This document shows positions 4,766 to 55,901 of a stretch of DNA of 64,000 nt, piece after piece. Position 1 is the first letter of the stretch. The number at the start of each line of letters is the position of its first letter. Under the pieces are notes generated by a model. The model did not search any database, was not told the origin of the DNA, and saw only the letters and a list, made by a program, of their open reading frames with translations. A program made the position numbers and the translations under genes. Location: positions 911,869-975,868 of the forward strand of contig JAWPMW010000001.1 in the NCBI GenBank assembly GCA_033344735.1, read 5' to 3'. This stretch comes from Gammaproteobacteria bacterium. GTDB taxonomy: Bacteria > Pseudomonadota > Gammaproteobacteria > UBA4575.

Positions 4766-4816
4766 ATTTACAGCTTTTACGTTTACGTAATAAACGCTAG
4801 CCTAACCTCGGTTCAA

Positions 4817-9347: not shown

Positions 9348-9379
9348 AGAACTCAAATAAGGAAATGGAGTAACCACAA

Positions 9380-30100: not shown

Positions 30101-31614
30101 CGCGCATCTTTCATCAATATAGCAGTTGAGTGATATGTTCTAGGAATTGTTATCGAATCAACAATTCTCCAGCTATCTGTTTCTGGAGTATATATTTCTG
30201 ATTCAAAGACAGCGCCGAAGTCAGTAAAATTAAATGCGCTTGTATTTCCACCAACTACAATCACTTCACCATTTGGCAAGGTCACTGAGTTACTGTATGC
30301 ACGTGGAAAAGTCATCGGCGCACCTTGTGTAATAACAGGTGTAGGACCATTCAGGTCAACAAGATGCACATTAGTGTTAAGGACTGGTGGGGTCTCGCGT
30401 GTGTCTGAACCACCAATTAAAAGAACTTTACCTACATCATAAGTAACTACATTTCCCCACATTCTTGCGCGATTACCTGTAGGTTGTCCCAAATCTTGGT
30501 TTGCAGTGTCATCTATGGGATCAAAAGAATGCAAGGTCGGTGTCGGTCCACCATGAAATACTCTGCCATTAGGTTGAACTGCTAAAAGAGCATACCACTC
30601 CATATTTCCGCCGCCGCCTTGGATATTATTATGCTCTTGCAATAAAGTTTGCATACTAACGTTTGGCGTCCTGATCCAAGAGTTTAAATCCGGGTCATAT
30701 TTTTCAGAGCGATTGCCCGCACCTCTTGCAAACGTTGAAAATATTTGATTATTTGGCAGCGTTATATTTGTTCCATACCATCTTTCATCAAACATGTCCG
30801 GTAATGGCCCCCACGTTAAAGTATTTGGATCAAAACTACTTGTACGTGCATCTTGAGGATTTCCACCTGACGCAACTATGACGCCATTTTCTAAAGTAGA
30901 TACACCAGTACAGAACATATCGTGAAAATTATTGTCAGTCGTTTGAAAAGTATTATTTGATGGATCAAAAACAGCTGAATGTGTATAAAAATTTCCCGCA
31001 GGAAAACTATCCGGCTCACTAGCCGACCACGTCAATATACGTCCATCAGTTAATGTAGCAGCGTAAATAGCAATATGAGGCCAATCAATTACTGGTCCCC
31101 ATTGGCCCATTTCTTTCAGTGTGGAGAGATCACCATTTAGTGCACCATCGGCTGGAATCGCCTCAAATCCTCCACCAGCAACTCTATATTGGACGTCTAA
31201 AAATCCATTTGTACCTTTAGAAAAATATTCAACACGTAATTGATATACACCAGGGTTTAAAAACAATTGCCCACCTACCGTAATCGGTGCATGCAAGCCA
31301 TCATTATCAACAATAAGATTGTTATCAATTAAAAGTGCCGAACCATCATCAGAAGTAGTTTGAAATTCATAAGTTCCAGCTGTAGTGACTGATATTTGAT
31401 TTGTAAAAACTAAACCGAAGGTATCAGTTTGGGACGTCACGTTTAGAGAAATAGTATCGTTGGTACCTGTTGCTATAGGACTTAAAGCAGTAAAATCTGG
31501 CAATTCATCATAATCTCCATCGTACACACTGTAGTCGAACTGTGAATATGCTGTTGAGCAAAATACGATTAACAACAGTGTAAAAGCTGAAGTTAGTCTA
31601 ACTAATTGTGACAT
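24154..31614 (-). CDS. Giant secreted multidomain protein (2486 aa): PA14, galactose-oxidase-like copper radical oxidase, TSP3 Ca-binding repeats, Ig-like domain, CBM-like module, YVTN beta-propeller, di-haem cytochrome c peroxidase domain, TSP3 repeats, CBM-like module, 5 tandem Ig-like repeats, C-terminal CBM-like module
   Basis: Signal peptide. Copper radical oxidase active-site residues conserved (HDMFC235TG, ERWY280, RTY494H495S, TTHH580). DxDGDGxxDxxDAFPNDP thrombospondin-type-3 repeats in three blocks (about 29515-29690, 28500-28790 and 26470-26650). YVTN propeller (LVYVTNKKDATISV). Di-haem CCP domain with CASCH (27296-27310) and CTSCH (26907-26921). Tandem 95-96-aa Ig-like repeats (APYSFTWNGATEGAHSLTA). 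Confidence 0.85.
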   Translation of the reverse strand: MSQLVRLTSAFTLLLIVFCSTAYSQFDYSVYDGDYDELPDFTALSPIATGTNDTISLNVTSQTDTFGLVFTNQISVTTAGTYEFQTTSDDGSALLIDNNLIVDNDGLHAPITVGGQLFLNPGVYQLRVEYFSKGTNGFLDVQYRVAGGGFEAIPADGALNGDLSTLKEMGQWGPVIDWPHIAIYAATLTDGRILTWSASEPDSFPAGNFYTHSAVFDPSNNTFQTTDNNFHDMFCTGVSTLENGVIVASGGNPQDARTSSFDPNTLTWGPLPDMFDERWYGTNITLPNNQIFSTFARGAGNRSEKYDPDLNSWIRTPNVSMQTLLQEHNNIQGGGGNMEWYALLAVQPNGRVFHGGPTPTLHSFDPIDDTANQDLGQPTGNRARMWGNVVTYDVGKVLLIGGSDTRETPPVLNTNVHLVDLNGPTPVITQGAPMTFPRAYSNSVTLPNGEVIVVGGNTSAFNFTDFGAVFESEIYTPETDSWRIVDSITIPRTYHSTAILMKDARVFSAGGGACGNCDANHLDAQIYSPPYLYNNDGSLATRPVITNAPSQAGAGDEITVSASADTQSFSMVRLSATTHHLNTDQRVVPVSSIDNGDGTFTLTMFSNPNVLIAGNYWLFAMNGDDTPSIGRTIQILRDPQSPGDSDGDGVPDSEDAFPNDPTETTDSDGDGVGDNSDAFPNDPTETKDTDGDGIGDNSDPTPYILPTVSITAPAANAIFTEDDAITITADAADSDGNITSVDFYDGAVLLGTDTTAPYSFIWNGATEGAHILTADATDNDGAIATSVPVSIVVEEGSGNNGGGNTELALLANAAVLSGAFELSPDNQFIQVPQSVVPAYDFSESAGSAEFTFNVTTPGIYQIEATVQATDDTSDSFYVRVDGAPGTPYLWDTEIQNTFTPLLIINRGETDPVAVDLSAGNHVVTLYHRESGTQLSELKLILVQANGPVDSDGDGVIDTEDAFPNDPTETVDTDGDGVGDNADAFPNDPAESADTDGDGVGDNADAFPNDPTETADSDGDGYGDNIDSTPTGGSNLANLPTAPRNSTTLIVETSTGADRIWNVNPDNNSVSVTSEAGNLIQEIPVGLNPWSLAKAPNANLVYVTNKKDATISVINTQTLVVEQTISLPFGTQPHGIVFDSLGSNYYLVLEATAHVEARNAVTHAVIASTQLTGTPRHIAMTYDDSRLLVTNFITPPIPGESTLVVDTQNGAAEVFVIDPPSMSLTNTIALSYDNRFISESQGPGMPNYLNAPVISFDNQNGFIPSKKDNVDSGLLRGKPGMTFDTTVRANTSRIDLTTETEDSVNISIDFDNASVATGAAITGNSRYLLVALETSRELGVFDIVNNFEVMRLPTGRAPQGVALSTDSSIAYVHNFMDRSISRFDLTEMIETDLPALNLLSPVNVVGGEQLTSDVFLGKQLFYDAADDRLALDNYMSCASCHNEGDSDGRVWDISAFGEGLRNTISLQGHGAGHGRLHWSSNFDEVQDFEGQIRDLSAGTGLMSEADFTATSDTLGIPKAGLSADLDALAAYVNSLTEIPANPYAVAAVDMTAEAIAGEIVFNNSGCTSCHTGILLTDSEQALLHDIGTIDTASGQRLGSTLDGFDTPTLLGIFKTAPYLHDGSAQTVAEAISAHNTVTLSSTELDQLSAYLEQASFIDSDGDGVLDTEDAFPNDPTETQDTDGDGVGDNSDVFPNDPTETQDTDGDGIGDNADETPFGDTGLEVLEQAAQDAVIFGAFALSPDNQFIEVPQNIEPAYDFGISAGYAEFTFNVVTAGTYQIEATVLANDDTSDSFYIRVDGVPNTPYLWDTEIQNTFTPLLIINRGETDPVTVNLSAGEHVVTFYHRESGTQLSNVKLILDQPSQNVAPTVGLTAPIANATYTVGDAISLTADATDPGGSIISVEFYDGATLLSTDVNAPYSFIWNGASLGAHSLTAVATDNEGAATTSAIVNISVNQPIPNIEPTVNLTAPSDNASFVFGNAITLIADASDSDGTVTSVEFYDGAILLSTDTTAPYSFTWNGAAEGAHIVTAVATDDDGDVSVSGDVNITVTPPPNVDPTVAITAPAANATFTVGDAINITASASDSDGSITSVDFYDGAILLSTDTTAPYSFTWNGATEGAHSLTAIATDNEAATTTSAAININVNTPAANVDPTVAITAPAANATFTLGDAINITASASDSDGTVTSVDFYDGATLLSTDTTAPYSFTWNGATEGAHSLTAVATDNEAATTTSVAIDITVTVPANVDPTVVITAPAANATFTVGDTINITASASDSDGSVTSVDFYAGTTLLSSDITAPYSFTWNGATEGAYSLTAVVTDNEAATTTSAAVSITVEADTGGGPEVLDLPASSASLSGAFVLAANGQYIHVPESFGDYYSFTPSTGSAQFTFNVTTAGLYQIEADIFANSFGSDSFFVQVDGGPSTPYLWDTGQHYSSFVPTLVTNRGESGAVTLNLTPGQHVVTFFLREDNTQISGVRLNLIQAF
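24600..26050 (-). repeat. Five tandem in-frame 285-288-bp repeats encoding Ig-like domains inside the giant gene
   Basis: Near-identical DNA units start at 24670, 24955 and 25243 (caagct[ag]t[ga][ca]gcaccttcagtcgcaccattccaagt), with further copies upstream. A separate pair of about 400-bp CBM-encoding duplications lies at roughly 26055-26460 and 28800-29200. Confidence 0.7.
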
Positions 31615-31885: not shown

Positions 31886-33118
31886 TTATTTAACTGACAA
31901 CATATTTAAAAAAGCGACTAAATGATCAAGCTGCTCTGATTGTAAATTCAGTGGCTTTAATTCATGAGCGCCATTATCAGTAGGTGGATGATTATAAAAT
32001 TCCACAACCTCCTTTAATGTGTTAAATCGACCATCATGAAAATAAGGTCCAGTTAACTCAACGTTGCGCAGTGATGGAGTTTTGTAGGCTCCATGAAGTG
32101 GAATATGATTAGTGCGATTTAGAAATCTCAGCGCCGTGCAACTATCAGGTTTAGCATCACTATAAGCACCCAAGCAATTAAATTCATCCATCAACACTGC
32201 TTGAAGTCCAAAGACGCGACCAAAATCAAGCTTGCCTCCTTCAAATCTTCCACTACCAACATTATGAAATCCACCATTAGTCAATAACGCTCCATTATGG
32301 CACTGCATACATTGTGTTTTCTCAGGATCAATAAACAATTTAATCCCTTCTATCTCATCTTTAGTGGGTTCAATGACTTGATTATTTTTATCGAATAACT
32401 GATCAACATAGTTATCAAATCGACTAGGCTTAGGTGCTAACGTTCTTTCATAGGCTTCAATCACCTTACCTAGATTAGAGTACACTCTATTTATCTTTTT
32501 CTGCGTTAAAATAGGTAAACGATACCAGTTATCCTGTGTTTTCATATCACCAAATGGTCCAGCGTGTTTAGGCAAATCACTACTTAGAAAATTTTTCGGA
32601 AATTCACCAAAAATTGACTCGTACATGTCGCGATAGTTCTCATCTTGAGTGACAATACGTACCACAGCAAGGCGACTGCTGCCCATCTCGTCCTTTGCCT
32701 CAAATGGTATAAGCGCTTGTGCCCAAAGTGAATCTCGACGACCATCCCAATAAAACCATCGCAACCATCCACTACCAACAATCGTGGGAGTATTTCTTCC
32801 TGCAGTGTTTTTACTGTTTATATGAGGCAGACCATCTGTGAAATATTTATCTGGTTGATGACAAGTAGCACAAGATGTATCACCATTGCCACTTAAACGT
32901 TCATCAAAAAAAAGTTTCTCTCCAAATGATTTGGCTTGAGGAAGATCAGCAAAACGATTAGATGCGCTATCAGGCAAAGAAGGCAACGCAGAAAGTGATA
33001 GCGACTGCAATATAGATAACTCATATTTAGTCCACTGCCTGTCGCCTGCAAAACAGAATACTGGCAGGCAAAAAGTTATAAGCAAAGTTAACGCGTTAAA
33101 ACGAGAGTTCAATATCAA
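31886..33118 (-). CDS. Di-haem cytochrome c peroxidase family protein (CcpA/MauG-like)
   Basis: Signal peptide. CATCH and CMQCH haem motifs. GPYFHDGRFNTLKEVVEFYN C-terminal block. Overlaps the upstream small gene by 23 nt. Confidence 0.85.
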   Translation of the reverse strand: MILNSRFNALTLLITFCLPVFCFAGDRQWTKYELSILQSLSLSALPSLPDSASNRFADLPQAKSFGEKLFFDERLSGNGDTSCATCHQPDKYFTDGLPHINSKNTAGRNTPTIVGSGWLRWFYWDGRRDSLWAQALIPFEAKDEMGSSRLAVVRIVTQDENYRDMYESIFGEFPKNFLSSDLPKHAGPFGDMKTQDNWYRLPILTQKKINRVYSNLGKVIEAYERTLAPKPSRFDNYVDQLFDKNNQVIEPTKDEIEGIKLFIDPEKTQCMQCHNGALLTNGGFHNVGSGRFEGGKLDFGRVFGLQAVLMDEFNCLGAYSDAKPDSCTALRFLNRTNHIPLHGAYKTPSLRNVELTGPYFHDGRFNTLKEVVEFYNHPPTDNGAHELKPLNLQSEQLDHLVAFLNMLSVK

Positions 33119-33515
33119 AACGTGCTCGATCTTTATAAGATGAATTTTGGATATAAAAATTCAATGTCCATTCTCCAGACATATTAAACAACATACCTTC
33201 AATCAAATAGCTTCCATCACCGAAATATTCAGTGACAATTGGTTGCGAAGGCAACCCATGTCCATGTCCCAACATTCCGCCTTCCACAGTAATATTTACA
33301 TCATCAATCGCATAACCAGAAAGATCTTTAACAACTATTATCCAATTATGGTACTGACCAATCTGATATTGCTCAGCTTGCGGTTGAATTAACACTTTTA
33401 GAGATCCGCTTTGAGAAAAAACTTCCCAGGAAGCTTTATCTGCATGCAGTACAAAACTGATGAGAATAATTAAAACTCCAAAAATACTAGAATTAAAAGC
33501 ACGAAATTTATTCAT
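33096..33515 (-). CDS. Small periplasmic beta-sandwich-like protein (139 aa) with HGHG motif, partner of the di-haem peroxidase
   Basis: Signal peptide. Mature region of about 110 aa containing MLGHGHGLPSQP (possible metal site). Translationally coupled to the downstream CCP gene. Confidence 0.45.
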   Translation of the reverse strand: MNKFRAFNSSIFGVLIILISFVLHADKASWEVFSQSGSLKVLIQPQAEQYQIGQYHNWIIVVKDLSGYAIDDVNITVEGGMLGHGHGLPSQPIVTEYFGDGSYLIEGMLFNMSGEWTLNFYIQNSSYKDRARFDIELSF

Positions 33516-43603: not shown

Positions 43604-45055
43604 TTAGTGGGCATGAAAATGTTTTGCGCCTGCCCATGGCGAATCAGTTGTACCATCTTCGATAGATTCTTTACCTTTATATGAACCTCGAACTTTAGTT
43701 GCAGGATGATCACTACCTGTATATGGACTTGACGGATCAACCAGTTTCTCTCTAAATGTGCCTGGCGCATATTCTGTTTGTGCGCGTCCTCGCTTCACAA
43801 GTTCAGGCCTTACATAATCAATAAAGTCGGTGACAGATCCTGGAGTGATAGCATACGCAAGGTTAAACCCATCAACACCGCCGTAATCTACCCATCGCTC
43901 TAACTCATTAGCGACTTTTTCAGGCCCACCAACAAGTACTGGACCAAGACCACCAATGCAACGCTCTTTAATCACATCACGCACGGACACATTTTTTCCA
44001 CCATCTTCAGTTAATGATTCAAGTGTTGTACGCAGAGCATCATTATCTAATGCCTTGAGTGGCTCATCAGGTTCTAATTTAGAGAAATCTATACCAGTCC
44101 AACCACCGTATAGTGCCAACATGCCTTCAGGATTTACATATTGTAAATAATCTTCGTATTTCTGTTGTGCTTGCTCATCGGTTGAGCCCGTCACAACTGT
44201 TAAAAGTGTAAAGATTTTAATTGAACCAGGATTGCGCCCTGCTTCCTTTTCATATTTTCTTATATCATCCGTAACTGTTTTCGAATGCTCAGGGCTAGTT
44301 GTCAAAATGAACATTGCTTCACAATGCTTGGCTGCAAACTGACGGCCACGACTAGATGCACCAGCCTGAAAGATAACCGGGGTACGTTGTGGTGAAGGCT
44401 CGCATAAATGGAACCCTGGAACTTTAAAGTATTTACCTTCATGTTTAATAGGATGAACTTTTGTAGGATCAGTAAATATTCCACTTTCTTTATCACGTTT
44501 AACAGCGTCTTCTTCCCATGAGCCTTCCCATAACTTATACATCACTTCCATATATTCATCTGCATAGTCGTAACGTTCATCATGTGCCATCTGTTGATCC
44601 ATACCAATATTAAGCGCGGCACTATTCAAATATGAAGACACCACGTTCCATGCAACACGGCCTTTGGTAAGATGATCTAGGGTTGATAATCGGCTTGCAA
44701 GAAGATAAGGAGGCTCAAATGTCACTGCAGCGGTTACGCCGAATCCGACATTCTTTGTGGCAGCTGCCATTGCTGCAATTGCGCAAAATGGATCATTAAC
44801 TGGAATTTGTGCTGCGTCTTTAAGCGATGCCGCTGCAGTACCACGGTATACATCATACATACCTTTAACATCAGCAATGAACAAAGTATCGAAAACTCCA
44901 CGTTCAAGCTCAATAGCCATGTTCGTCCAATACTCTATATCATTATATCTTGAAGCCTGGCTATTTGGATGAGTCCACATCCCTGATGATTGATGGCTCA
45001 CACATGTCATATCAAAAGCATTTAAAATAATGCGCTTTTTTGCACCCTTACTCAT
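43604..45055 (-). CDS. Luciferase-like (LLM) FMNH2-dependent monooxygenase, NtaA/SnaA/DszA/DmoA subfamily (483 aa)
   Basis: ILNAFDMTCVSHQSSGMWTHP N-terminal signature of the NtaA/DszA family. TIM-barrel LLM length of about 450-480 aa. Start reassigned to the second Met (MSKGAKKR, AGGAG RBS) because a sigma-54 promoter overlaps the first. Confidence 0.8.
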   Translation of the reverse strand: MSKGAKKRIILNAFDMTCVSHQSSGMWTHPNSQASRYNDIEYWTNMAIELERGVFDTLFIADVKGMYDVYRGTAAASLKDAAQIPVNDPFCAIAAMAAATKNVGFGVTAAVTFEPPYLLASRLSTLDHLTKGRVAWNVVSSYLNSAALNIGMDQQMAHDERYDYADEYMEVMYKLWEGSWEEDAVKRDKESGIFTDPTKVHPIKHEGKYFKVPGFHLCEPSPQRTPVIFQAGASSRGRQFAAKHCEAMFILTTSPEHSKTVTDDIRKYEKEAGRNPGSIKIFTLLTVVTGSTDEQAQQKYEDYLQYVNPEGMLALYGGWTGIDFSKLEPDEPLKALDNDALRTTLESLTEDGGKNVSVRDVIKERCIGGLGPVLVGGPEKVANELERWVDYGGVDGFNLAYAITPGSVTDFIDYVRPELVKRGRAQTEYAPGTFREKLVDPSSPYTGSDHPATKVRGSYKGKESIEDGTTDSPWAGAKHFHAH

Positions 45056-45099
45056 AATTCTCCTACCCTTCTTTGAATTGATGTTATCCAAAGTAGTAC

Positions 45100-46000: not shown

Positions 46001-47758
46001 TTAATTTCGCCTTTTTCTTTTCTTAGGATTATCTGAGTTCACCAAGAAAACATTCTCTTGAATCTCTCTACCAATACGTGTGTTACGACGAATCACTTGC
46101 GCAAGAGATGTCTGCTCAATTGAACGTACTTGACGAGGTGACATGCTGTTTTCATACCAGAAGCGGTCACCATCACGCAGCCTTTCAAATTGGTCCTTTA
46201 AAATAGCAAAGAAAACTTCTCCCACTAATGCCCCGGCTACTTTATCTTCTGCGAGGCCACCTACCCAAAGATCAACTTCGTTAACGGTCGTATAAGCTTC
46301 AGCCAACTTTGCTTGTATGTCAGTATTCGATGAAATATCTGCGAAGTTCACAACAGGTGCCAGACCTAATGCGACGCGAGTATCATTATAACTAGCTAAA
46401 CCATGATCACGCCCACGTTGTATATTGAGTGAAGCTAAATCAAACCCTCCATTACCAGGTAGACCAAATAAAAAATTACGAACATCATCAATGATAAGCA
46501 CATCAAGGTCTTGGCAAGCCTGTTTTGCCAGCCCCCTTAATATAGGGTCAATACCACCTTCATTGATAATACTACCGGGAGAGAAGAAAGCATCTCGCAA
46601 GGAGAGATTTCCAAAAGCAATTTCATTACCACTTCGATCCAATCGCAGTATTTGTGGTGAAAGTAAACTATGTCCCAAGCGATATGCAGCAGTAGAAAAT
46701 TCATTACGAATGCTTGCATCAAGATCGGGGTTATAACCACTGTATTCACTTAATGCATTTGGTCCAAGTAGCACGGGTATAAATTCTTTATAAGTAATGA
46801 CCTGCATAAGCGCAGCTACTTTATTACGTGCACGTTGATAAATTTCATCACCGCTTAAATTGGATTGACGTCTAGCAATTCTTGTTGCCAGTCGATTATG
46901 CTCGCGAACAAATAAAGTATGCATAGCTGTGAGTCCAACTTGCTCATTAGCACGCACATCACCTGCCAAGAATAATGTCTCACTTGGACCACCAGCATTA
47001 CTTAAACCCGCAGTATTAAATGGTAGTAGGTTGCCCTCACTGGTTTTTAATTTTCCGGTACCATCTAAAGTACGCAATTCAGCGGCACGCTCATCATCAG
47101 AACCATATACATTAGATGCATCAATCCAGCCGGTGATTTCGTTAACTTGTTGGCGTGGATTATCAGCATTGAGTCCTGTCAGTTCATCATAGTTTGATCG
47201 GTTGAATGGCAGCACCACATCACCCGCATCATTAGGATCAAAAAGCTCATCTCCAGAAGGGATAGCAATGTTAGCAGGTTCTGGTATCGGCACGCCTTCG
47301 GTTAAATCAATATCGTGATCTAGAAATTGGCCCCACTGCCAAAGAAAGTCACTGGCAACATTTGGGGTTTGTGTTGAGATGGCTTGCGCCAATACACTAT
47401 TACTAACGACACGTGGATTGGGTCGTGTTGCTCCTGCTAATGCTGATATGTCATCACTATATGCATTTGGTGCAATGCGAGCCAACTGTGTGTGAGGCGT
47501 ATTCATGTCTGGGACTGCAATATTATTATTCGTTCCATTAATCGAGCGAATAAATACTTCGATGTTATTATTTTTATTGCGTCGATTATGGTCACGTTCG
47601 ATTCGTCGAACAGGAGAAGCATTTCGATCTTGTACGGTTTTATCCGCTTCTTTTAATAATTCGCCACCAGAAAGCCTTTGCCGTTGCTCTCCAATAACAA
47701 CTGTTGATACAAAAAAAGCACCTAATATAATAAAAATAATTATACTTTTTCTTGTCAT
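46001..47758 (-). CDS. Secreted animal-type haem peroxidase (peroxidase-cyclooxygenase superfamily)
   Basis: Signal peptide. LWQWGQFLDHDIDLT distal-His motif, GDVRANEQVGLTAMHTLFVREHNRLA proximal-His region, NIQRGRDHGLASYN, DLWVGGLAEDKV, RDGDRFWYEN. Confidence 0.85.
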   Translation of the reverse strand: MTRKSIIIFIILGAFFVSTVVIGEQRQRLSGGELLKEADKTVQDRNASPVRRIERDHNRRNKNNNIEVFIRSINGTNNNIAVPDMNTPHTQLARIAPNAYSDDISALAGATRPNPRVVSNSVLAQAISTQTPNVASDFLWQWGQFLDHDIDLTEGVPIPEPANIAIPSGDELFDPNDAGDVVLPFNRSNYDELTGLNADNPRQQVNEITGWIDASNVYGSDDERAAELRTLDGTGKLKTSEGNLLPFNTAGLSNAGGPSETLFLAGDVRANEQVGLTAMHTLFVREHNRLATRIARRQSNLSGDEIYQRARNKVAALMQVITYKEFIPVLLGPNALSEYSGYNPDLDASIRNEFSTAAYRLGHSLLSPQILRLDRSGNEIAFGNLSLRDAFFSPGSIINEGGIDPILRGLAKQACQDLDVLIIDDVRNFLFGLPGNGGFDLASLNIQRGRDHGLASYNDTRVALGLAPVVNFADISSNTDIQAKLAEAYTTVNEVDLWVGGLAEDKVAGALVGEVFFAILKDQFERLRDGDRFWYENSMSPRQVRSIEQTSLAQVIRRNTRIGREIQENVFLVNSDNPKKRKRRN

Positions 47759-47796
47759 GCCGCCGCCTTATTTTCTTGATTAAGTTGTTTTACTCA

Positions 47797-47841
47797 TAAT
47801 TCACACTTTGTAATATGTGTTAATTCACACTTTTTAATATG
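47797..47841. promoter_or_regulatory. Two 21-bp direct repeats (TAATTCACACTTT[G/T]TAATATG, 24-bp period) in the haem peroxidase promoter region
   Basis: Seen directly in sequence. 20 of 21 positions identical. 39-83 bp upstream of the peroxidase start codon. Confidence 0.4.
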
Positions 47842-48232
47842 CATTATTTTTAAATGATGTTGAATCAAGGCCAACGGTAGTCTGAGACTGACAAACGGTA
47901 GAGAAAGCTCGCTAATCAATTGAATTAATTTGAATTTATCTTTTGTGAACGACTTAACGTGCATTCTAAGCCCTAGAGTTGTTACTGGTAGGAAGCAGGC
48001 TTAATCCAATAACGCATAGCATGTTTTCAAGTAATGTCCACTTTCGACCCAAAACGACATTCAAGATTATAGTAAACCTTGATCTCGTTTTGCATTTTTG
48101 TCTATATTTCTTATATTTAAACACTGTTTTGGTTACCAATAACTTGTGTAATTATATAAGTAATTGCGAATGATATTAACTTGACTCTGCAGATTTATAT
48201 AACAGCTGTTAGCAGCATAACGGATCAAATCG

Positions 48233-49231
48233 ATGAACTATAATAATATTCCGAAACAGTCTTTAGGTTTTTTCCCAACACCGATTGTCGAACTTTCCAA
48301 GTTAAGCAAAATGTTTGGCGGCCCTAAATTATTTATGAAACGAGATGATAATACGGGTCTTGCATTGGGTGGTAACAAAACCAGAAAGCTAGAGTTTATT
48401 CTTGGAGATGCGTTGGCGTGTGGTGCAGATACTATAATTACTGCCGGAGCAACACAATCAAACCATTGTCGGCAAACTGCTGCCGCAGCTGCAAGTCTGC
48501 AACTTGAATGCCATCTTGTTTTAGGTGGAGAAAAACCTGAAATTATTAACGGCAATTTATTGCTTGATCAAATATTTGGCTGCCATATTCATTGGGCTGG
48601 AATTAATCGCAAGGGAGAAGACATTCCTCAAATTGTTAAACAACTACAACAAGCAGGAAAGAAGCCTTATGTTGTGCCATATGGTGGCTCGAATGAACTA
48701 GGAGCTTTAGCATGTGTAGATGCATTGAAAGAAATTATAGCGCAAAGTCATAACATGAATGAGTCGTTCACACATATCGTTTTTGCCTCAAGCTCAGGTG
48801 GAACACAAGCTGGACTAATGCTTGGCAAGAAGATACTTAATTCATCATATCAAATCATTGGCATAAATATTGATAAAGGAGAAACAGATATGGTTTCTTT
48901 TGATCAATTCATATTGTCTCTTGCAAACAGTACTGCAAATTTCATTGATTTTAATCAAGAATTCTTAGAAGAAGATTTAAATTTAAATTCTGACTATGTT
49001 GGCGAAGGTTACGGCGTGCTTGGTCACTTGGAGAACGAAGCAATTTCGTTGACAGCACAAACAGAAGGAATATTGTTAGATCCTGTTTATACAGGAAGGG
49101 CTATGGGTGGCTTAATTGATATGATCCGAACCGGAAAATTTGACAAGAGAGATAACATTTTATTTTGGCATACCGGAGGCACACCTGCTCTATTTGCTTA
49201 TTCAAATAGATTGAATTCCATGGAATTTTAG
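48233..49231 (+). CDS. PLP-dependent 1-aminocyclopropane-1-carboxylate deaminase / D-cysteine desulfhydrase family protein
   Basis: GGNKTRKLEF PLP-lysine motif and fold-type II PLP enzyme length (332 aa). Confidence 0.8.
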   Translation: MNYNNIPKQSLGFFPTPIVELSKLSKMFGGPKLFMKRDDNTGLALGGNKTRKLEFILGDALACGADTIITAGATQSNHCRQTAAAAASLQLECHLVLGGEKPEIINGNLLLDQIFGCHIHWAGINRKGEDIPQIVKQLQQAGKKPYVVPYGGSNELGALACVDALKEIIAQSHNMNESFTHIVFASSSGGTQAGLMLGKKILNSSYQIIGINIDKGETDMVSFDQFILSLANSTANFIDFNQEFLEEDLNLNSDYVGEGYGVLGHLENEAISLTAQTEGILLDPVYTGRAMGGLIDMIRTGKFDKRDNILFWHTGGTPALFAYSNRLNSMEF

Positions 49232-49294
49232 CATAGCACTGCAGCAGACGAATTTAAATAATTAAATCTTAAAAATAATTTATGAGGAATTTTA

Positions 49295-49705
49295 GTGGAT
49301 AAAATAGAAAGTTATAAAGCTAGTTGCAGTTGTGGAATAATTGAAGTCTCTATGCAAGGAAACCCAAAAGTAAAAGGATTTTGTCATTGCGAAGATTGTC
49401 GAGAACTATTAAATGTACCTTATCATTCTGTAAACGCATGGGATAATAATAATGTTACGGTCTTAAAAGGCAGTGTTTATATTAGAGAATATCAGCACTC
49501 TAAACTTAAAATGAAGAAGTTCTATTGTAGTGAATGTGGAGACACTATTTACAACTCTAATGCTATGGATTGGAAAGTATTTTCACAGTTGTTGATTAGC
49601 AAGTCTTATAGTGGAAATCTACCTAAAGAGCTTCATCCAGAATCCCATTTTTTTTATGACAGCCGTATTATTGATATTAATGATGATTTGCCGAAACATA
49701 GTTAG
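49295..49705 (+). CDS. GFA-family protein (glutathione-dependent formaldehyde-activating enzyme / CENP-V-like)
   Basis: Cys ligand pattern CSCG...CHCEDC...CSECG, characteristic of the Gfa zinc sites. 136 aa. Confidence 0.75.
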   Translation: MDKIESYKASCSCGIIEVSMQGNPKVKGFCHCEDCRELLNVPYHSVNAWDNNNVTVLKGSVYIREYQHSKLKMKKFYCSECGDTIYNSNAMDWKVFSQLLISKSYSGNLPKELHPESHFFYDSRIIDINDDLPKHS

Positions 49706-49822
49706 AAGAGAACCAATCTGAATGAAGGTGTTATTTAGCTCTATACAGCAGGAACCGGCCTCAAGCAGAAATTCGCAACTGGATAATAAAGAAGACAACT
49801 TAGTGATAGAATAACTTTCTTC

Positions 49823-50653
49823 TTGTTTTTATCATTAAAATCAAATAAGAGGTACGCCATTTTGGAAGATCAATCAGTTGACGCTTATAAACCTGCAAAA
49901 ATTGCTGAACTAGTAGAAAATATTGGTGTGACTAAAGCTGTCATGCCTACTGTACCAACGATTATGTTGGGCTTAATGGCAGGTGCTTTCATAGCATTTG
50001 GTGCTATGTTTTACACACTAGTCATGACCAATAACGATATGGGACTAGGTCCCGCTAGATTGCTAGGTGGTCTAGCATTTTCATTGGGTTTGATACTGGT
50101 GCTGGTGGGTGGAGCAGAGCTTTTCACAGGTAATAATTTTATTGTGATGGCATGGGCCGAGAAAAAAGTAACAACGCTTCAGCTGTTAAGAAACTGGTCT
50201 ATCGTCTATATCGCAAATTTTGTAGGAGCTGTTGGAACGGCATTATTAATTTTTTGGTCTGGTGTACTTACTATTGGTGAGAACGCTTTCGCCGAGAATG
50301 CATTAAACATTGCAGTCTACAAAACTAACCTAGACCCCTTACAAGCATTTATTAGAGGTATTTTATGTAATGCACTGGTATGTCTATCAGTTTGGATATG
50401 CTTTGCAGCACGTGATGTAGCAAGCAAAATTTTAGCAATTATTTTTCCTGTCTCAGCTTTTGTTGCATTAGGCTTTGAGCATTGTATTGCAAATATGTAC
50501 TTTATCCCGCTTGGCATGATTCTAAGCGATGGACAAATAGGAATTACTGATTTTATGACAAACATAATTCCTGTAACCGCTGGAAATATAGTTGGAGGGA
50601 GTATATTTGTAGCATTTGTGTATTGGATTGTTTATGTAAGGGATTATAAGTAA
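49823..50653 (+). CDS. Formate/nitrite transporter (FNT) family channel
   Basis: Six TM helices. GGAELFTGNN and L..GNIVGG FNT signature loops. The exact start is uncertain (possible TTG start near 49860). Confidence 0.8.
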   Translation: MFLSLKSNKRYAILEDQSVDAYKPAKIAELVENIGVTKAVMPTVPTIMLGLMAGAFIAFGAMFYTLVMTNNDMGLGPARLLGGLAFSLGLILVLVGGAELFTGNNFIVMAWAEKKVTTLQLLRNWSIVYIANFVGAVGTALLIFWSGVLTIGENAFAENALNIAVYKTNLDPLQAFIRGILCNALVCLSVWICFAARDVASKILAIIFPVSAFVALGFEHCIANMYFIPLGMILSDGQIGITDFMTNIIPVTAGNIVGGSIFVAFVYWIVYVRDYK

Positions 50654-50851
50654 GGAGACATCTACCAAATTTACTTTAAATGCTCAAATCCACTTGCACT
50701 TAACGAAATTTGATCTTCATGAATCTTGCAGAAATAGCTATTTTTATTGAAGAATTTACAATGTCTCTTAGCAGGTACAAGATTAATTCGCAGTATTAGG
50801 CTTATGAGGCGAGCCCTGCTCTACTCTCGTTTACCAGTTAAACAGTCAATA

Positions 50852-51412
50852 CTAAATGTTTAATTCTTGAAGATGCTCAATTAGTGACTTGATATTATTT
50901 CGAGCCGAACCCTCATTAGCCAATCTTAATCTCTCTACCCCTAAGAAAGCAGCATTCCACTTTGCTGTAAAGGGCGTTGTGATTTTTTTATAAAATACTT
51001 CTTTTTTGGTTTCATTTTCCACTAAGGAATATGAAATTATTGTAGTGACTGTCATACTTGCACCAAGTATAGGCTGCTTAACTTCTATTAATACTGCTGA
51101 GAGTGAATAATCACTATTTACTGAAGATCTATTTAGAAATTGCGCATCTGCCAACGAATTAATCATCGCCTGCTTATAATCTTCGTTACTAATTTCTGAT
51201 GTCCATAGTGGATTGGTACTTTTACCTCCGGAGACTGTATCCACTATTAAATTATTTTTTAAATTATCACTTCCTTTGTACTGCCCCCAATCTTCTGAGG
51301 GAATAGTCATATTCTCCATTTTTGCAGGAGAGGCACAGCCGCTTATTAGCAAAATAATTGCAAGAGCTAAAAAGTAAATTATATGTTGATTTTTCATATA
51401 TGATTTATACAC
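50852..51412 (-). CDS. hypothetical lipoprotein (186 aa)
   Basis: Signal peptide plus lipobox LISGC. Confidence 0.4.
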   Translation of the reverse strand: MYKSYMKNQHIIYFLALAIILLISGCASPAKMENMTIPSEDWGQYKGSDNLKNNLIVDTVSGGKSTNPLWTSEISNEDYKQAMINSLADAQFLNRSSVNSDYSLSAVLIEVKQPILGASMTVTTIISYSLVENETKKEVFYKKITTPFTAKWNAAFLGVERLRLANEGSARNNIKSLIEHLQELNI

Positions 51413-52153: not shown

Positions 52154-53533
52154 ATGACACATTATGATGCCATCATCATTGGCGCAGGTCAGGCTGGCCC
52201 TTCATTGGCTGCCTCTCTCACATCCAATGGGCAAAAAGTAGCAATAGCAGAGCGGCATTTATTTGGTGGTACCTGCGTAAACACTGGGTGTATACCAACT
52301 AAAACTTTAGTGGCCAGCGCCAAAGTAGCAAACATGGCTCGTCGTGCCAAAGAATACGGAATTATGTTGGATAGTGACATTACCGTAGACATGAAATTAG
52401 TCAAAGCACGAAAAGATGACATTGTGGCCAAATCGAATCAGGGTGTAACAGGCTGGTTGAAAGGCATGAATAATCTGGATGTATATGAAGGCCATGCTAC
52501 TTTTGAAAGTGCAAATTCTGTATTAGTGAATGGAAAAACAATTAGCGCAGATAAATTGTTTATTAATGTTGGTGCTCGCGCGCGAGTTCCAGATATGCCA
52601 GGTATAGGTGATATAGAGTATTTTACTAACACCACCATAATGGATGTTGATACCTTGCCAGAGCATCTGATAATTGTGGGTGGTAGTTATATTGGACTAG
52701 AGTTTGCACAAATTTATAAACGTTTTGGCAGCAAAGTGACAGTCATTGAAATGTCTGACCGTGTAATTGCCAGAGAAGACGATGATGTCTCTACGAGTGT
52801 TCAGGAAATTCTTGAACACGAAGGTATTCAAATTGAATGCAATGCTGAATGCATCAGTTTTGAAAAGCAAGGCGACAAAGTAGTAGCTAGCTTGTCATGT
52901 TCAGATGAAACTAGAAAGATTGTTGGTAGCCATGTGTTGTTGGCAGTAGGCAGAGTGCCAAATACAGATGATCTTGGTTTGGAGAAAGCAGGCTTGGAAA
53001 CGGATGTTCGAGGTTTGATTCCGGTTAATGATCAGCTTCAAACTAGTGTTTCAGGAATCTGGGCATTAGGAGAATGCAACGGTAAAGGTGCATTTACTCA
53101 TACGACATATAATGATTATGAAATTGTTGCTGATCAGTTACTGGGTTCAAAAACACGCTTAGTCAGTGATCGTATTCCTTGTTATGGCTTATACATTGAC
53201 CCTCCTTTAGGTCGCGTAGGAATGACAGAGCAACAAGTCAAAAATAGTGGAAAAAATGCATTAGTTGGGAAAATGATGATGGCAAATGTAGGACGTGCAA
53301 AAGAAAAAGGTGAAACTCAAGGATTCATGAAAGTGATGGTAGATGCTGACAGCAAGGAAATACTAGGTGCAAATATACTTGGTGTAGGTGGTGATGAAAT
53401 TATACATCTTTTTCTAGATACAATGTACGCTGGGCAAAGTTATGAAGTCATCAAGAATGCAGTACACATTCACCCTACGGTTGCTGAGTTGGTTCCTACT
53501 ATGTTGCAAAACCTAACACCTTTAAAACAATAA
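52154..53533 (+). CDS. Class I FAD-dependent pyridine nucleotide-disulfide oxidoreductase (glutathione reductase / mercuric reductase-like core, no NmerA)
   Basis: GGTCVNTGCIPTK redox-active disulfide motif. GAGQAGP FAD motif. C-terminal dimerisation domain with HIHPTVAE. Confidence 0.8.
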   Translation: MTHYDAIIIGAGQAGPSLAASLTSNGQKVAIAERHLFGGTCVNTGCIPTKTLVASAKVANMARRAKEYGIMLDSDITVDMKLVKARKDDIVAKSNQGVTGWLKGMNNLDVYEGHATFESANSVLVNGKTISADKLFINVGARARVPDMPGIGDIEYFTNTTIMDVDTLPEHLIIVGGSYIGLEFAQIYKRFGSKVTVIEMSDRVIAREDDDVSTSVQEILEHEGIQIECNAECISFEKQGDKVVASLSCSDETRKIVGSHVLLAVGRVPNTDDLGLEKAGLETDVRGLIPVNDQLQTSVSGIWALGECNGKGAFTHTTYNDYEIVADQLLGSKTRLVSDRIPCYGLYIDPPLGRVGMTEQQVKNSGKNALVGKMMMANVGRAKEKGETQGFMKVMVDADSKEILGANILGVGGDEIIHLFLDTMYAGQSYEVIKNAVHIHPTVAELVPTMLQNLTPLKQ

Positions 53534-53583: not shown

Positions 53584-54141
53584 TTAACTCGGGTATAGCC
53601 ATTTAAAAAATAGCCTTGTCAACCAAGGCATTATCAGCCAAACCATAATAGGTACTGATAATATTATCGACAATAAAATTTGAATTAAGTAAGACCAGTC
53701 TGAAACAAAAGGAGATAAAATATAATCTAATAACAAGACTAGTGGGTACAAACCGAGAACCAGCAATATGGCTGTTTTATATTTTGGTGGCGCTTGGCTT
53801 ATACTGCGATCGGGTAAAGTAAACCACTTCTCCATACCAGTTAACGTTGTAACTTCTTGTGAATCTAACGTGATGGTATCAAGCTTATTAATCCATTCTG
53901 CACGTAATTCAGAATTTAACCAGTTTTCTAAATTTTCCGTGGAATCAAACTGCACGACAGATATATATTCTAAATTATTTCCACTAGGCCTGATAATTGT
54001 TGTTCCTTGATTACCTTTAAAAGAGTTTGAAACATTAGTTATATCTTTGAGCCATTGTTCATAATCATTTTCATAGCCAGCTTTTACTCTTCTTGAGAAA
54101 ATTGTTGTTACAGGACAAGGAAATTGCTTAGTCATTAGCAA
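53584..54141 (-). CDS. hypothetical protein with two C-terminal TM helices
   Basis: ORF track only. Soluble N-terminal part plus a hydrophobic C-terminal tail. Confidence 0.3.
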   Translation of the reverse strand: MLMTKQFPCPVTTIFSRRVKAGYENDYEQWLKDITNVSNSFKGNQGTTIIRPSGNNLEYISVVQFDSTENLENWLNSELRAEWINKLDTITLDSQEVTTLTGMEKWFTLPDRSISQAPPKYKTAILLVLGLYPLVLLLDYILSPFVSDWSYLIQILLSIILSVPIMVWLIMPWLTRLFFKWLYPS

Positions 54142-54226: not shown

Positions 54227-54676
54227 CTAGAATTCTCGGAATATTCGACCTACATTTTTAATTTTTTCATTAAAACCATTCTCTCTTAATGCATACCAAA
54301 ATAGTGTAGTATTGATACTTAGCACCGGAATTTCGATAATAGGTTCAAGTTTCTCTGCCACATCTATCATACTCATATTCGTACCACATTGAACTATTGC
54401 ATCAAGATCATCAGCTGCGAGCAATTCTGTAATTGCTTTTTCTTTAGCCTAGTTGGGAATATGAGCTATATGCAATGCATTAGCGCATGAAAATCCCACA
54501 GATGAAACAACTTTAAAACCCATATCCACAAACATGCGAGCAGCATTTTGATTTCCATTCTTGTCAAATGGAGTAATTAAGCCAATGCGCTTTGCGTTAT
54601 ATAACTTTAATGCGACTGGTATTGCTTCATGCCAAGTGGCCCATGAAAGACCAGAATAGCTTTCTATATCAAGCAT
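54227..54676 (-). pseudogene. Asp/Glu/hydantoin racemase superfamily (maleate isomerase / arylmalonate decarboxylase-like) gene remnant: 5'-truncated by IS insertion and carrying an in-frame TAG
   Basis: Two same-frame ORFs (54449-54676 and 54227-54424) separated by one in-frame TAG at 54449-54451 (minus strand). VQCGTNMS motif typical of the family. No N-terminal about 100 aa. The IS left inverted repeat begins at 54701. Confidence 0.6.
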
Positions 54677-54700: not shown

Positions 54701-55901
54701 TTGTGCATGGCGAATTAGTATTTTTGCATAATATCACTTGAATTCGCAGTCTTGTTATTGATTGGAATCTAACTATGATAAGTCTGCATGAAGGATGTAC
54801 TCTTACTTGCCATTCATTTTGTAACGCTACTTATCCGCCTGCTTCAACCCAGTGGAATAAAGGCAGTTGCGGCTGAAAACTTGACGCTAAAGAAACAACT
54901 GTTAGTCATTCAACGATCGAGATCGAAAGCACCCAACCTCACTACTATGGATCGACTGATCTTTGGGTGGTTGGCAATGTTGCTTTCTCCCAAACGAATC
55001 TCTCGATCTTGCATCATTTTAAAACCTTCGACCCTTCTCTCGTTTCACAAGGCACTCGTGAAACGAAAATACTTACAACTTTTTTCTTCTACTGGCAAAG
55101 GAAAACCTGGCCCTAAAGGTCCCAACAGTGATTTGATTAAAGCCATTATCGAAATTAAACAACGCAATCCCAGGTTTGGCTGCCCACGTATTGCACTCAT
55201 TATTACAAATACATTTGGTATCGAAATTAACAAAGATGTTGTGCGAAGGATATTGATGAAACATTATCATCCAAGCCCTAATGACAAAGGCGGCCCTTCT
55301 TGGTTATCTTTTATTGCTAACATGAAAGACAGCTTGTGGAGTATTGATCTATTCTGTTGTGAATCCACTACACTGAAAACGCATTGGGTACTCGTCGTCA
55401 TGGATATCTGGAGTCGACGGATGATTGGATGTTCAGTCAATAAAGGACCTGTCGATGGCCCAACTCTTTGCAGGATGTTCAATCAGATCATATCTAATAA
55501 AAGTGCACCTCATTATATAAGTACGGACAACGACCCTCTTTTTCAATTTCATCGATGGAAAGCCAACCTTAGAATTCTGGAAATTGAAGAAGTGAAATCC
55601 ATTCCCTTTACGCCAATTTCACACCCTTATGTCGAACGAGTGATTGGCACTATAAGGCGCGAGTGTCTGGACCAGACATTATTTTGGAATGAAGTTGATC
55701 TGCAGAATAAACTGGATGACTTCATCGACTACTATAACAATCATCGCGTGCATGCTTCGCTTAATGGCAATGTGCCCGCCAATTTTGGCGAAGAAAGATT
55801 GCAATCAGTTGCGAATCTAAAAAAGTTTAACTGGAAAACACTTTGTCGCGGACTGGTTCAACTCCCAATCCCAGCTTAAATTACCAATTCGCCATGCACA
55901 A
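54701..55901 (+). mobile_element. IS481-like insertion sequence (about 1.2 kb) with 20-bp imperfect terminal inverted repeats
   Basis: Left inverted repeat TTGTGCATGGCGAATTAGTA (54701-54720). Right inverted repeat reverse complement TTGTGCATGGCGAATTGGTAA (55881-55901), matching at 19 of 20 positions. TGT termini. A single DDE transposase ORF. No obvious target-site duplication. Confidence 0.7.
54788..55879 (+). CDS. DDE transposase (rve integrase-core domain)
   Basis: D (VVMDIWSRR)...D (YISTDNDPLF)...E (HPYVERVIGTIRRE) catalytic triad spacing. C-terminal YNNHRVHASL. Confidence 0.85.
   Translation: MKDVLLLAIHFVTLLIRLLQPSGIKAVAAENLTLKKQLLVIQRSRSKAPNLTTMDRLIFGWLAMLLSPKRISRSCIILKPSTLLSFHKALVKRKYLQLFSSTGKGKPGPKGPNSDLIKAIIEIKQRNPRFGCPRIALIITNTFGIEINKDVVRRILMKHYHPSPNDKGGPSWLSFIANMKDSLWSIDLFCCESTTLKTHWVLVVMDIWSRRMIGCSVNKGPVDGPTLCRMFNQIISNKSAPHYISTDNDPLFQFHRWKANLRILEIEEVKSIPFTPISHPYVERVIGTIRRECLDQTLFWNEVDLQNKLDDFIDYYNNHRVHASLNGNVPANFGEERLQSVANLKKFNWKTLCRGLVQLPIPA

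Follow-up and report, generated by a model that had tools for sequence, protein, structure and literature searches.

Introduction

Glu295 and Leu322 (Pseudomonas numbering) separate ACC deaminase from D-cysteine desulfhydrase, and the zinc protein Gfa (S-hydroxymethylglutathione synthase) is roughly 190 aa long. The catalytic residues of the desulfhydrase StDcyD are Asn50, Lys51, Ser78, Asn79, Tyr287 and Thr315, and a D-specific Tyr is conserved between DcyD and two CuyAs; pairing of CuyA genes with a sulfite exporter is documented, and CuyB is found near 668 of 1720 putative CuyAs, an association that is frequent but not universal (PMC11193023). Whether true Gfa acts as a catalyst is a matter of dispute (PMC4682968). 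For FocA, a member of the FNT family of channels, positions 92, 93, 100 and 167 are 80–100% conserved (PMC5525234). Relatives of all three proteins are encoded side by side in a 64-kb stretch of gammaproteobacterial DNA (the window), where a sequence-only reading had proposed that they form a detox and export module for small molecules made by MtoX and formate dehydrogenase (FDH). The comparison presented here points instead to three independent genes that have become neighbours.

Results

Three intact genes on one strand

The span attributed to the cluster, 48233–50653, was confirmed exactly, being filled by three consecutive plus-strand ORFs. The first (48233–49231) encodes a 332-aa PLP-dependent fold-type-II lyase (PF00291 PALP, 140.9 bits), the second (49295–49705) a 136-aa GFA/CENP-V-fold zinc protein (PF04828 GFA) and the third (49862–50653) a 263-aa FNT-family channel (PF01226 Form_Nir_trans). 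Counted from its first TTG, the mechanical ORF of the FNT gene spans 49823–50653 (276 aa); its true start is most likely the TTG at 49862, yielding the 263-aa product, since a Shine–Dalgarno sequence (AAGAGG) is found 9 nt before it, and the product annotated in the source record, also of 263 aa, is 100% identical to this version. The GFA gene has a GTG start with GAGGAA ahead of it. With the corrected FNT start, the PLP–GFA and GFA–FNT gaps are 63 and 156 bp. A terminator scan revealed no terminator-like site in either gap, every plus-strand site reported falling within the FNT coding region, and given these short same-strand gaps with no predicted terminator, co-transcription of the three genes is possible. 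Ortholog identities reach 75–86% for the PLP enzyme, up to 78% for the GFA protein and up to 92% for the FNT channel. With orthologs present and their catalytic or metal-binding residues invariant, all three genes are real, intact and under selection.

The PLP gene is separated from a divergent haem-peroxidase gene by a 474-bp intergenic region (47759–48232) with promoter-like hexamers, in which a tandem 24-nt repeat (47797–47844) lies upstream of the haem-peroxidase gene. This repeat was the only one found in a search that identified no mobile-element-like boundaries flanking the three genes. An Rfam scan of 47500–51200 (E<=1) returned no family at threshold and no riboswitch or leader, its lone match, a snoRNA with E=0.22, being taken as chance. 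An NtaA/DmoA-family monooxygenase is encoded 3 kb upstream of the cluster. At 4 kb downstream, a transposase of the IS type and a truncated pseudogene mark what appears to be a variable stretch of the chromosome around the three genes. The pseudogene (54227–54676) consists of two short ORFs that correspond to one 5′-truncated gene with an in-frame TAG, the remnant of an Asp/Glu-racemase-superfamily member with weak Amdase matches (E 0.004 and 0.065). A CuyB-like racemase was considered here and rejected, so weakly matched and truncated a pseudogene giving no support for a cuy pathway.

The PLP enzyme falls on the DcyD/CuyA side of its family

NCBIfam scores for the PLP enzyme lay below cutoff for CuyA (NF052482; 361.4 versus 450) and XcbE (291 versus 450), for TIGR01275 (ACC_deam_rel, the D-cysteine desulfhydrase family; 288.7 bits, cutoff 289.4), for the enterobacterial DcyD equivalogs (239–260 bits, cutoffs 429–610) and for the ACC deaminase models TIGR01274 (223.9 versus 392) and NF010646 (230.4 versus 550). 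Against PDB entries, it scored 263 bits with the D-Cys desulfhydrase 7ysk, 221 with Salmonella DcyD and 200 with ACC deaminase. The StDcyD catalytic set is present, aligned and conserved, as N48, K49, S76, N77, Y286 and T314, and the segments N48-K49, Q75-S76-N77-H78 and Y286-T287, together with T314, are invariant in 119–120 of 120 homologs. Where the Pseudomonas ACC deaminase 1RQX has DPVYEG and AHLGG, the enzyme has DPVYTG and WHTGG, with Thr at the equivalents of both Glu295 and Leu322, and these two Thr are likewise invariant (119–120 of 120). ACC deaminase identity is ruled out by this Thr/Thr pair and by HMM scores far below cutoff.

Of the joint DcyD/ACC-deaminase label given earlier, the superfamily assignment holds and the ACC-deaminase alternative fails. 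Judged by its sequence, the protein is a predicted beta-elimination lyase of the DcyD/CuyA (D-cysteine desulfhydrase/D-cysteate sulfo-lyase) branch. It is named ‘D-cysteine desulfhydrase family protein’ in the source record, and some sources label close orthologs L-cysteate sulfo-lyase. Homologs retrieved in a plasmid search were at most 46% identical; one of these, on a Phaeobacter plasmid beside an amino-acid ABC transporter, is uninformative for the clade to which the enzyme in the window belongs.

A short GFA-fold protein that is not Gfa

The second protein, described earlier as Gfa-like and formaldehyde-activating, belongs to that family at the level of the Pfam domain only (PF04828, 64.5 bits versus a gathering threshold of 24.3). 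Its seven zinc-ligand Cys (11, 13, 30, 32, 35, 78 and 81) are kept in 43–47 of 47 orthologs. No NCBIfam model matched at E<=1e-3, and a PDB search at E<=1 gave four matches (8ajq, 3fac and two viral polymerases), the best being 8ajq, an uncharacterised CENP-V/GFA domain protein (32.7 bits). With the Paracoccus Gfa structures absent from these PDB matches and no NCBIfam match, identity with true Gfa was rejected. Genes for a GSH-dependent formaldehyde dehydrogenase or an S-formylglutathione hydrolase (frmA/fghA-type) were found neither among the window ORFs scanned nor in three loci with GFA orthologs.

An FNT channel apparently outside the published subfamilies

That the third gene encodes an FNT-family channel was borne out by its PF01226 score (262.7 bits) and by the presence of the family residues L89, T91, H209, N121 and N262 and the vestibule Lys156; all of these are invariant in 120 clade members, with the exception of N121, mapped for the query alone. 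HMM scores were 224.8 for TIGR04060 FocA (cutoff 290.1), 224.6 for TIGR00790 (cutoff 232.3) and 98 for NirC (cutoff 293), and PDB scores were 177–185 bits for FocA, 101 for HSC 3TDO and 84, the weakest, for NirC. Grouping with nitrite channels, raised in the sequence-only reading, is therefore not what we find. Identity is 41% to E. coli FocA, V. cholerae FocA and algal LCIA alike.

Pore residues were mapped onto 3KCU numbering and set against Table 4 of PMC5525234. This check, suggested earlier as a means of choosing between FocA, NirC and HSC, shows a channel that is not NirC-like and scores best with FocA, but for which no published subfamily fits in full. It carries F75, L79, L89, T91, K156, N172, V175, F202, H209 and A212 and differs from FocA at G92, N93, W100 and R167, the last two being W98 and R165 in the numbering of the protein in the window; these four residues with a short loop E constitute a clade signature that does not correspond to any of the eight subfamilies published. 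T34, F90, G92, N93, W100, R167, E208 and the short loop E are found in 120 cluster representatives of the clade, which occurs largely in metagenome assemblies. Among the subfamilies considered, FocA was rejected for want of S92, T/S93, K/R100, L167, a long loop E, a score above the TIGR04060 cutoff and pfl linkage; FdhC, with V/L/I90, Q208, a hydrophobic residue at 34, S167 and a small residue at 100, where the channel has F, E, T, R and W; and the NirC subfamilies, both for the weakest PDB match and for conflicts at L79, A212, N93, L37 and T34 with the NirC-alpha, -beta and -gamma consensus. The HSC subfamily matches at 11 of 13 defined signature positions, T34 and W100 being the mismatches, with 101 bits to 3TDO. 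The channel apparently belongs to a coherent, unclassified clade, whose physiological substrate could be other than formate (HS−, nitrite, bicarbonate or bisulfite).

We identified no asr genes near the FNT gene, and no pflB/PFL gene beside it or in 87 homolog loci. An FDH-alpha gene adjoins, or lies within ~4 kb of, six of 86 more distant FNT homologs, and relatives at 47–52% identity adjoin formate-dehydrogenase genes. A search for FNR boxes upstream of the FNT gene in the window gave only sites with two mismatches, and perfect or near-perfect FNR-type boxes were found upstream of four FNT orthologs.

The arrangement does not recur, and MtoX and FDH lie apart

The three genes were not found together in any other genome surveyed. 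No FNT gene occurred within up to 10 kb of the PLP ortholog in 29 loci (PLP identity 67–86%) from Psychrobacter, Cognaticolwellia, Glaciecola, Cellvibrionaceae, Geobacteraceae and Polaribacter; no PLP or GFA gene in 87 FNT loci (FNT identity 40–92%); and no PLP or FNT partner in three GFA-ortholog loci (GFA identity 52–73%). Neighbours of the PLP orthologs were heterogeneous: among the 78 that remained after near-duplicate Psychrobacter neighbours were dropped, the top families, GNAT acetyltransferase and DUF3141, accounted for four each, and none was CuyB (PF01177), CuyR or CuyZ/TauE. FNT relatives at 89–90% identity adjoin DUF302 or EAL/GGDEF/beta-lactamase genes. Further GFA-family ORFs were found neither elsewhere in the window nor in ~690 kb of FNT loci. 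Missing conservation does not prove missing function in the source organism.

MtoX (4817–6196, minus strand; above cutoff for NF052453 with 760 bits) and an NAD-type formate dehydrogenase (7671–9347 and 9380–12139; Fdh-alpha, 773 bits) are indeed present in the window, as stated in the sequence-only reading, but the link drawn from them to the PLP–GFA–FNT cluster is not upheld. They lie 36–43 kb from it, in a compact cluster of their own (1.4–12.1 kb) with SCO1, MauG-like and redoxin genes, and folP, lepA, degP, rseB, nadB, dnaX and recR intervene.

Discussion

Since their relatives are never found together in other genomes, we favour chance juxtaposition over a dedicated module: the PLP, GFA and FNT genes would be independent neighbours in the source lineage that serve no dedicated pathway, a reading to which we assign a probability of about 0.6. 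The PLP enzyme would then act as a D-specific beta-eliminating lyase, in which the internal-aldimine Lys49 binds PLP and the Tyr286 equivalent takes the alpha-proton from a D-amino acid that carries a good leaving group at the beta position, presumably D-cysteine or D-cysteate, to yield pyruvate, NH4+ and HS− or HSO3−. The GFA-fold protein would bind two zinc ions through its seven Cys; what it handles is probably a thiol or carbon–sulfur adduct. The FNT protein would assemble into a pentamer that conducts a small monovalent anion, or the corresponding acid, with the canonical Thr91–His209 pair and Lys156 in the vestibule; formate is its most likely substrate, FocA being the best-scoring characterised relative and relatives at 47–52% identity lying beside formate-dehydrogenase genes. 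Against chance stand the short gaps with no predicted terminator, which would allow an operon, and the chemical coherence of a theme shared through small sulfur and C1 compounds. In two other lineages, moreover, GFA-family paralogs are again found adjacent to PLP orthologs or in their vicinity, so that the PLP–GFA adjacency may not be pure chance.

The lyase and the GFA protein may instead be a functional pair, in which the latter would trap or convert a reactive sulfur or carbonyl product, with the FNT gene an unrelated neighbour. Such a pair is suggested by a Geobacteraceae MAG (L038), where the PLP ortholog is followed on the same strand, after 75 bp, by a 136-aa GFA paralog, and by the L016/L017 lineage with one to three GFA paralogs within 7 kb upstream of the PLP ortholog (the nearest at 1.6 kb); with no other GFA in the window or in the ~690 kb of FNT loci, a rough post hoc estimate puts the chance of this at ~1e-3. 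However, the GFA genes concerned are different paralogs (22–27% identity), those near the L001/L017 PLP ortholog, tried as orthologs of the GFA gene in the window, proving at 24–26% identity to be paralogs. Moreover, orthologs of the GFA gene in the window have no PLP neighbour (3 of 3 loci), ~20 Psychrobacter loci and those of Cognaticolwellia, Glaciecola and Polaribacter have no GFA gene nearby, and the test is a post hoc one on small numbers with genes that are multi-copy in many genomes. We regard the pair as unlikely. A joint view, in which the unclassified FNT clade has a substrate that is perhaps not formate and the highly conserved lyase clade is perhaps repeatedly paired with GFA-fold proteins, which would suggest a two-protein carbon–sulfur chemistry so far undescribed, seems to us decidedly unlikely.

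The module originally proposed, in which sulfide or ammonia comes from the lyase, formaldehyde is activated with a thiol by the Gfa homolog and HS− or formate is exported through the FNT channel, so that H2S, formaldehyde and formate are dealt with on behalf of MtoX and FDH, would tie organosulfur breakdown (methanethiol, D-cysteine, cysteate) to a dedicated anion export route; short GFA-fold proteins and unclassified FNT channels, both of them poorly understood as families, would thereby gain a function. The true presence of MtoX and FDH in the window, the NtaA/DmoA-family monooxygenase upstream, the fit of the channel to the HSC consensus (N93 and a basic residue at 167 included) and the general permissiveness of FNTs for small monovalent anions are all in keeping with it. 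Comparative support is nonetheless absent, the arrangement recurring in 0 of 29 PLP, 0 of 87 FNT and 0 of 3 GFA loci; MtoX and FDH are distant, behind housekeeping genes and with accessory genes of their own; frmA/fghA-type genes are missing from the ORFs scanned, and the GFA protein itself is no true Gfa; making sulfide, as such a lyase would, is not detoxification; and the whole-sequence similarity of the channel to HSC is low. This makes the module very doubtful. Organosulfonate catabolism, with a CuyA-like D-cysteate sulfo-lyase and the FNT channel exporting bisulfite in place of a CuyZ/TauE-type exporter, draws on CuyA as the best NCBIfam match (361 bits versus 239–260 for the DcyD equivalogs), the sulfo-lyase name of some close orthologs, the precedent of CuyA paired with a sulfite exporter (PMC11193023) and the racemase-superfamily remnant at 54227–54676. 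Yet the CuyA score is under its cutoff, CuyB, CuyR and TauE are beside none of the 29 PLP orthologs, the remnant is a truncated pseudogene with a weak Amdase match, bisulfite transport is not known for any FNT and the FNT orthologs never adjoin sulfonate genes, so that we consider this a most improbable reading.

Chance juxtaposition of independent genes remains the preferred explanation, and as the evidence stands the main value of the analysis is negative: of the sequence-only reading, the superfamily assignments survive and ACC deaminase, formaldehyde activation and the module do not. A theme common to genes inside one 64-kb window does not amount to evidence for a pathway; neither the ACC-deaminase nor the ‘formaldehyde-activating’ label ought to be carried forward, and annotation of the FNT gene should stop at the family level.

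Comparison with known systems

With DcyD (Salmonella/E. coli, PDB 4D8T) and 7YSK, the PLP enzyme shares the fold-type-II PLP scaffold and an identical catalytic set (the PLP-binding Asn-Lys, Ser-Asn-His, Tyr-Thr and the Thr315 equivalent). It differs in being ~42% identical to plasmid-borne Klebsiella DcyD and under every DcyD equivalog cutoff, and its gene lacks the cystine/amino-acid ABC transporter neighbour of the Phaeobacter DcyD locus. CuyA (Ruegeria pomeroyi, Bilophila wadsworthia; PMC11193023) provides the top-scoring curated model, albeit below cutoff, and the D-specific Tyr of DcyD and CuyA is present here too; unlike at cuy loci, the cuyB racemase gene, cuyR and cuyZ are absent from this neighbourhood and from the 29 ortholog loci. 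ACC deaminase (Pseudomonas, PDB 1TYZ/1RQX) has in common the family, the PLP lysine and a 200-bit match, but reads QSNQ where the PLP enzyme reads QSNH, besides the two Thr replacements. Paracoccus Gfa and the GFA protein share the Pfam domain and the CxC...CxCxxC...CxxC zinc-ligand pattern, the latter being only 136 aa long and without detectable similarity to Gfa itself.

FocA (E. coli 3KCU, V. cholerae 3KLY), the best-scoring characterised FNT relative (177–185 bits, 41% identity), shares with the channel the central constriction (F75, F202, H209 and A212), the cytoplasmic slit (L79, L89, T91 and V175) and F90, E208, T34, L37 and N113, and differs in its long loop E, ~17 residues shorter here, and at S92G, T93N, K100W and L167R. 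HSC differs in its low score, at T34 and W100, which are off the HSC consensus, and in its asrABC linkage, missing here, and LCIA in being a plastid protein. Nevertheless, G92, N93 and a basic residue at 167 are common to the channel, HSC (C. difficile 3TDO; Table 4 consensus) and LCIA/NAR1 (9V2A; alignment), and with LCIA it further shares a short loop E and 41% identity.

Layout of the three genes

The PLP enzyme, GFA protein and FNT channel are encoded by three consecutive plus-strand ORFs, and both this arrangement and the family assignments of the sequence-only reading were borne out by ORF positions and Pfam: a 332-aa ORF at 48233–49231 (PALP, 140.9 bits), a 136-aa ORF with a GTG start at 49295–49705 (GFA, 64.5 bits) and an ORF at 49823–50653 that is 276 aa from its first TTG (Form_Nir_trans, 262.7 bits). 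The true start of the latter is most likely the TTG at 49862, with an AAGAGG putative ribosome-binding site 9 nt before it, and the resulting 263-aa protein is the same sequence as that in the source record (100% identity). The protein collection contains the source MAG's own PLP and FNT proteins (100% identity); best identity for the GFA ORF is no higher than 78%, and this small GTG-start gene may have been left unannotated in the source record. Intact relatives are numerous for all three genes and retain the catalytic and metal-binding residues. The genes are spaced by 63 and 156 bp, with no terminator-like hairpins predicted in either gap, and their co-transcription would be possible.

Conservation of gene neighbourhoods

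The cluster had been proposed to form a detoxification and export module with MtoX and formate dehydrogenase (FDH), a hypothesis that we tested by synteny from the PLP, FNT and GFA sides separately. In 29 distinct PLP-ortholog loci, taken with as much as 10 kb of flanking sequence, tblastn found no FNT, and no recurrent partner emerged when 78 neighbouring proteins were assigned to Pfam families, the commonest being GNAT acetyltransferase and DUF3141 (4/78 each). No PLP or GFA homologs were detected in 87 FNT loci (tblastn; iterated GFA HMM), whose neighbours are heterogeneous, even FNT relatives at 89–90% identity adjoining DUF302 or EAL/GGDEF/beta-lactamase genes. A PLP or FNT partner was likewise found in 0/3 GFA-ortholog loci. 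With no synteny shared from any side, the module is not supported, and the most economical reading of the cluster is an incidental, lineage-specific juxtaposition.

A narrower alternative, in which the PLP lyase and the GFA protein form a functional pair, we consider unlikely. In a Geobacteraceae MAG (L038, 2215–3723), a GFA-family gene does lie downstream of the PLP ortholog, across a gap of 75 bp, and at two further PLP loci of one lineage (L016, 4784–7795; L017, 2594–10984) others lie upstream, no closer than 1.6 kb, so that an association recurrent across lineages is possible; moreover, GFA ORFs are absent from ~690 kb of FNT loci and from the rest of the window. However, the GFA genes at these three loci are non-orthologous paralogs, only 22–27% identical to that of the window, around 20 Psychrobacter PLP loci have no GFA gene, orthologs of the window GFA occur without a PLP neighbour, and the co-location was noticed post hoc in small numbers. 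Incidental juxtaposition remains our preferred reading for all three genes.

Genomic surroundings

MtoX and FDH are both genuinely encoded in the window, in a compact unit of their own at 1.4–12.1 kb; between it and the cluster lie folP, lepA, degP, rseB, nadB, a 2486-aa ORF, recR and dnaX. On the minus strand this unit comprises mtoX (4817–6196; 760 bits, above cutoff), SCO1/SenC (3983–4711), a MauG/MbnH-like di-haem peroxidase (2627–3976) and two AhpC/redoxin-like genes (1391–2626), and on the plus strand a second SCO1 (6554–7129) and the NuoEF-like (7671–9347) and Fdh-alpha (9380–12139) genes of an NAD-type FDH; together the methanethiol-oxidase and SCO1/FDH genes span 1391–12139. The 2486-aa ORF (24154–31614, −) adjoins a second MauG/CCP-like di-haem peroxidase (31886–33118, −), and a YtkA-like protein is encoded at 33096–33515 (−).

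The surroundings of the cluster look like a variable region: besides an rve transposase and a truncated Amdase-like pseudogene, they contain a haem peroxidase of the animal type and two lipoprotein-like ORFs without a family assignment. The peroxidase (46001–47758, −; 585 aa; PF03098, 531 bits) is divergent from the PLP gene, and its upstream region contains a tandem 24-nt direct repeat (47797–47844, TAATTCACACTTTGTAATATGTGT / TAATTCACACTTTTTAATATGCAT), possibly an operator. An NtaA/DmoA-family FMN-dependent monooxygenase is encoded 3 kb upstream of the cluster (43604–45091, −; TIGR03860, 520 bits); this family takes in dimethylsulfide monooxygenase, and the family match alone does not tell the substrate. 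The Amdase/Asp-Glu-racemase-superfamily remnant (54227–54676, −), lacking ~85 N-terminal residues and split into two same-frame ORFs by an in-frame TAG (54449–54451), abuts the rve-type (IS3/IS481-like) transposase (54788–55879, +), which suggests an insertion-disrupted, decaying region. An FAD-dependent pyridine-nucleotide-disulfide oxidoreductase (52154–53533, +; PRK06370 group, 752 bits, above cutoff), resembling both RclA and the hypothiocyanite reductase MerA below cutoff (349–359 bits), adjoins an ABM-domain membrane protein (53584–54141, −); with the haem peroxidase, these genes may point to a theme of oxidant or (pseudo)hypohalite stress.

The GFA protein and the PLP enzyme

All seven zinc-ligand cysteines (C11, C13, C30, C32, C35, C78, C81) are present in the GFA protein and conserved among its 47 detectable orthologs, in keeping with its family. 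Its reading as a true Gfa did not hold up: no NCBIfam model matched, and likeness in the PDB was limited to an uncharacterised CENP-V/GFA domain protein (8ajq, 32.7 bits), Paracoccus Gfa structures being absent even at E≤1. Neither glutathione-dependent formaldehyde dehydrogenase nor S-formylglutathione hydrolase was found among the scanned window ORFs (several, including the 2486-aa ORF, were outside the scan), and whether even authentic Gfa acts as a catalyst has been disputed (PMC4682968). 'Formaldehyde-activating' is therefore a family name here, the function being unsupported.

For the PLP enzyme, the top curated NCBIfam model was D-cysteate sulfo-lyase CuyA (361 bits; cutoff 450), followed by XcbE (291), the DcyD-family subfamily TIGR01275 (288.7; cutoff 289.4), DcyD equivalogs (239–260) and ACC deaminase (224–230), every score being under its cutoff. 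Among solved structures, the highest scores went to D-cysteine desulfhydrases (7ysk, 263 bits; Salmonella DcyD, 221), with ACC deaminases at 200 bits and below. By alignment, the enzyme has N48-K49, Q75-S76-N77-H78, Y286-T287 and T314, the DcyD/CuyA residue set (PMC11193023), invariant in 119–120 of 120 homologs, whereas Pseudomonas ACC deaminase has QSNQ, YE and HL at the corresponding places. These residues, with its sub-cutoff scores, rule out the ACC deaminase option; the residues argue that the enzyme is a D-specific beta-eliminating lyase, D-cysteine, D-cysteate and other substrates not being separable by sequence. Plasmid-borne DcyD homologs are ~42–46% identical to it. Within its clade, identity is 75–86% in several gammaproteobacterial orders (Psychrobacter, Colwellia, Arenicella, Cellvibrionaceae), 70% in a Polaribacter MAG and 67–72% in MAGs of Geobacteraceae; such unusual conservation in distant taxa points to strong constraint, horizontal transfer or MAG binning errors.

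The FNT channel

Whole-sequence similarity ranked FocA (177–185 bits) above LCIA (153), HSC (101), PfFNT (87) and NirC (84), and HMM scores, both under cutoff, gave the same ranking (FocA 225, NirC 98). Since FocA outscores NirC in both, the nitrite-channel identity that would have spoken against the sequence-only reading does not apply. In percent identity, however, the channel is as close to algal LCIA (41%) as to the FocA proteins of E. coli and V. cholerae (41% each). Formate is our best guess for the substrate, because FocA is the best-scoring characterised relative, an FDH-alpha gene adjoins FNT or lies within ~4 kb in 6/86 homolog loci (47–52% identity), and FNR-type boxes precede four orthologs. 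These predicted FNR/CRP-type boxes, perfect (TTGATACTTATCAA, TTGATATTCATCAA) or with one mismatch, lie 74–156 nt upstream of the orthologs at L011, L047, L012 and L045 (71–85% identity) and are consistent with low-oxygen expression, suggesting such regulation for the clade; upstream of the window FNT we found only FNR-type sites with two mismatches and no good box. A Crp/Fnr-family regulator is also encoded at L011, and Usp, HSP20, globin and hemerythrin genes are close by at L011/L012.

Pore residues were placed on 3KCU numbering and set against the subfamily consensus of PMC5525234 (its Table 4). Canonical residues form both the central constriction (F75, F202, H209, A212) and the cytoplasmic slit (L79, L89, T91, V175, F90, N172), and K156 is present. 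This selectivity-filter comparison did not yield a nitrite channel, and the channel departs from the FocA and FdhC signatures. T34, L37, F90, G92, N93, W100, R167 and E208 are essentially invariant among 120 cluster representatives (61–100% identity), a group that, judged from these residues, is a coherent clade predicted to fall outside all eight published subfamilies. The window channel conflicts with FdhC at five positions; relative to FocA, it carries S92G, T93N, K100W and L167R at sites 80–100% conserved in that subfamily (PMC5525234) and is missing the characteristic long loop E; and it agrees with the HSC consensus at 11/13 defined positions, despite low overall similarity to HSC.
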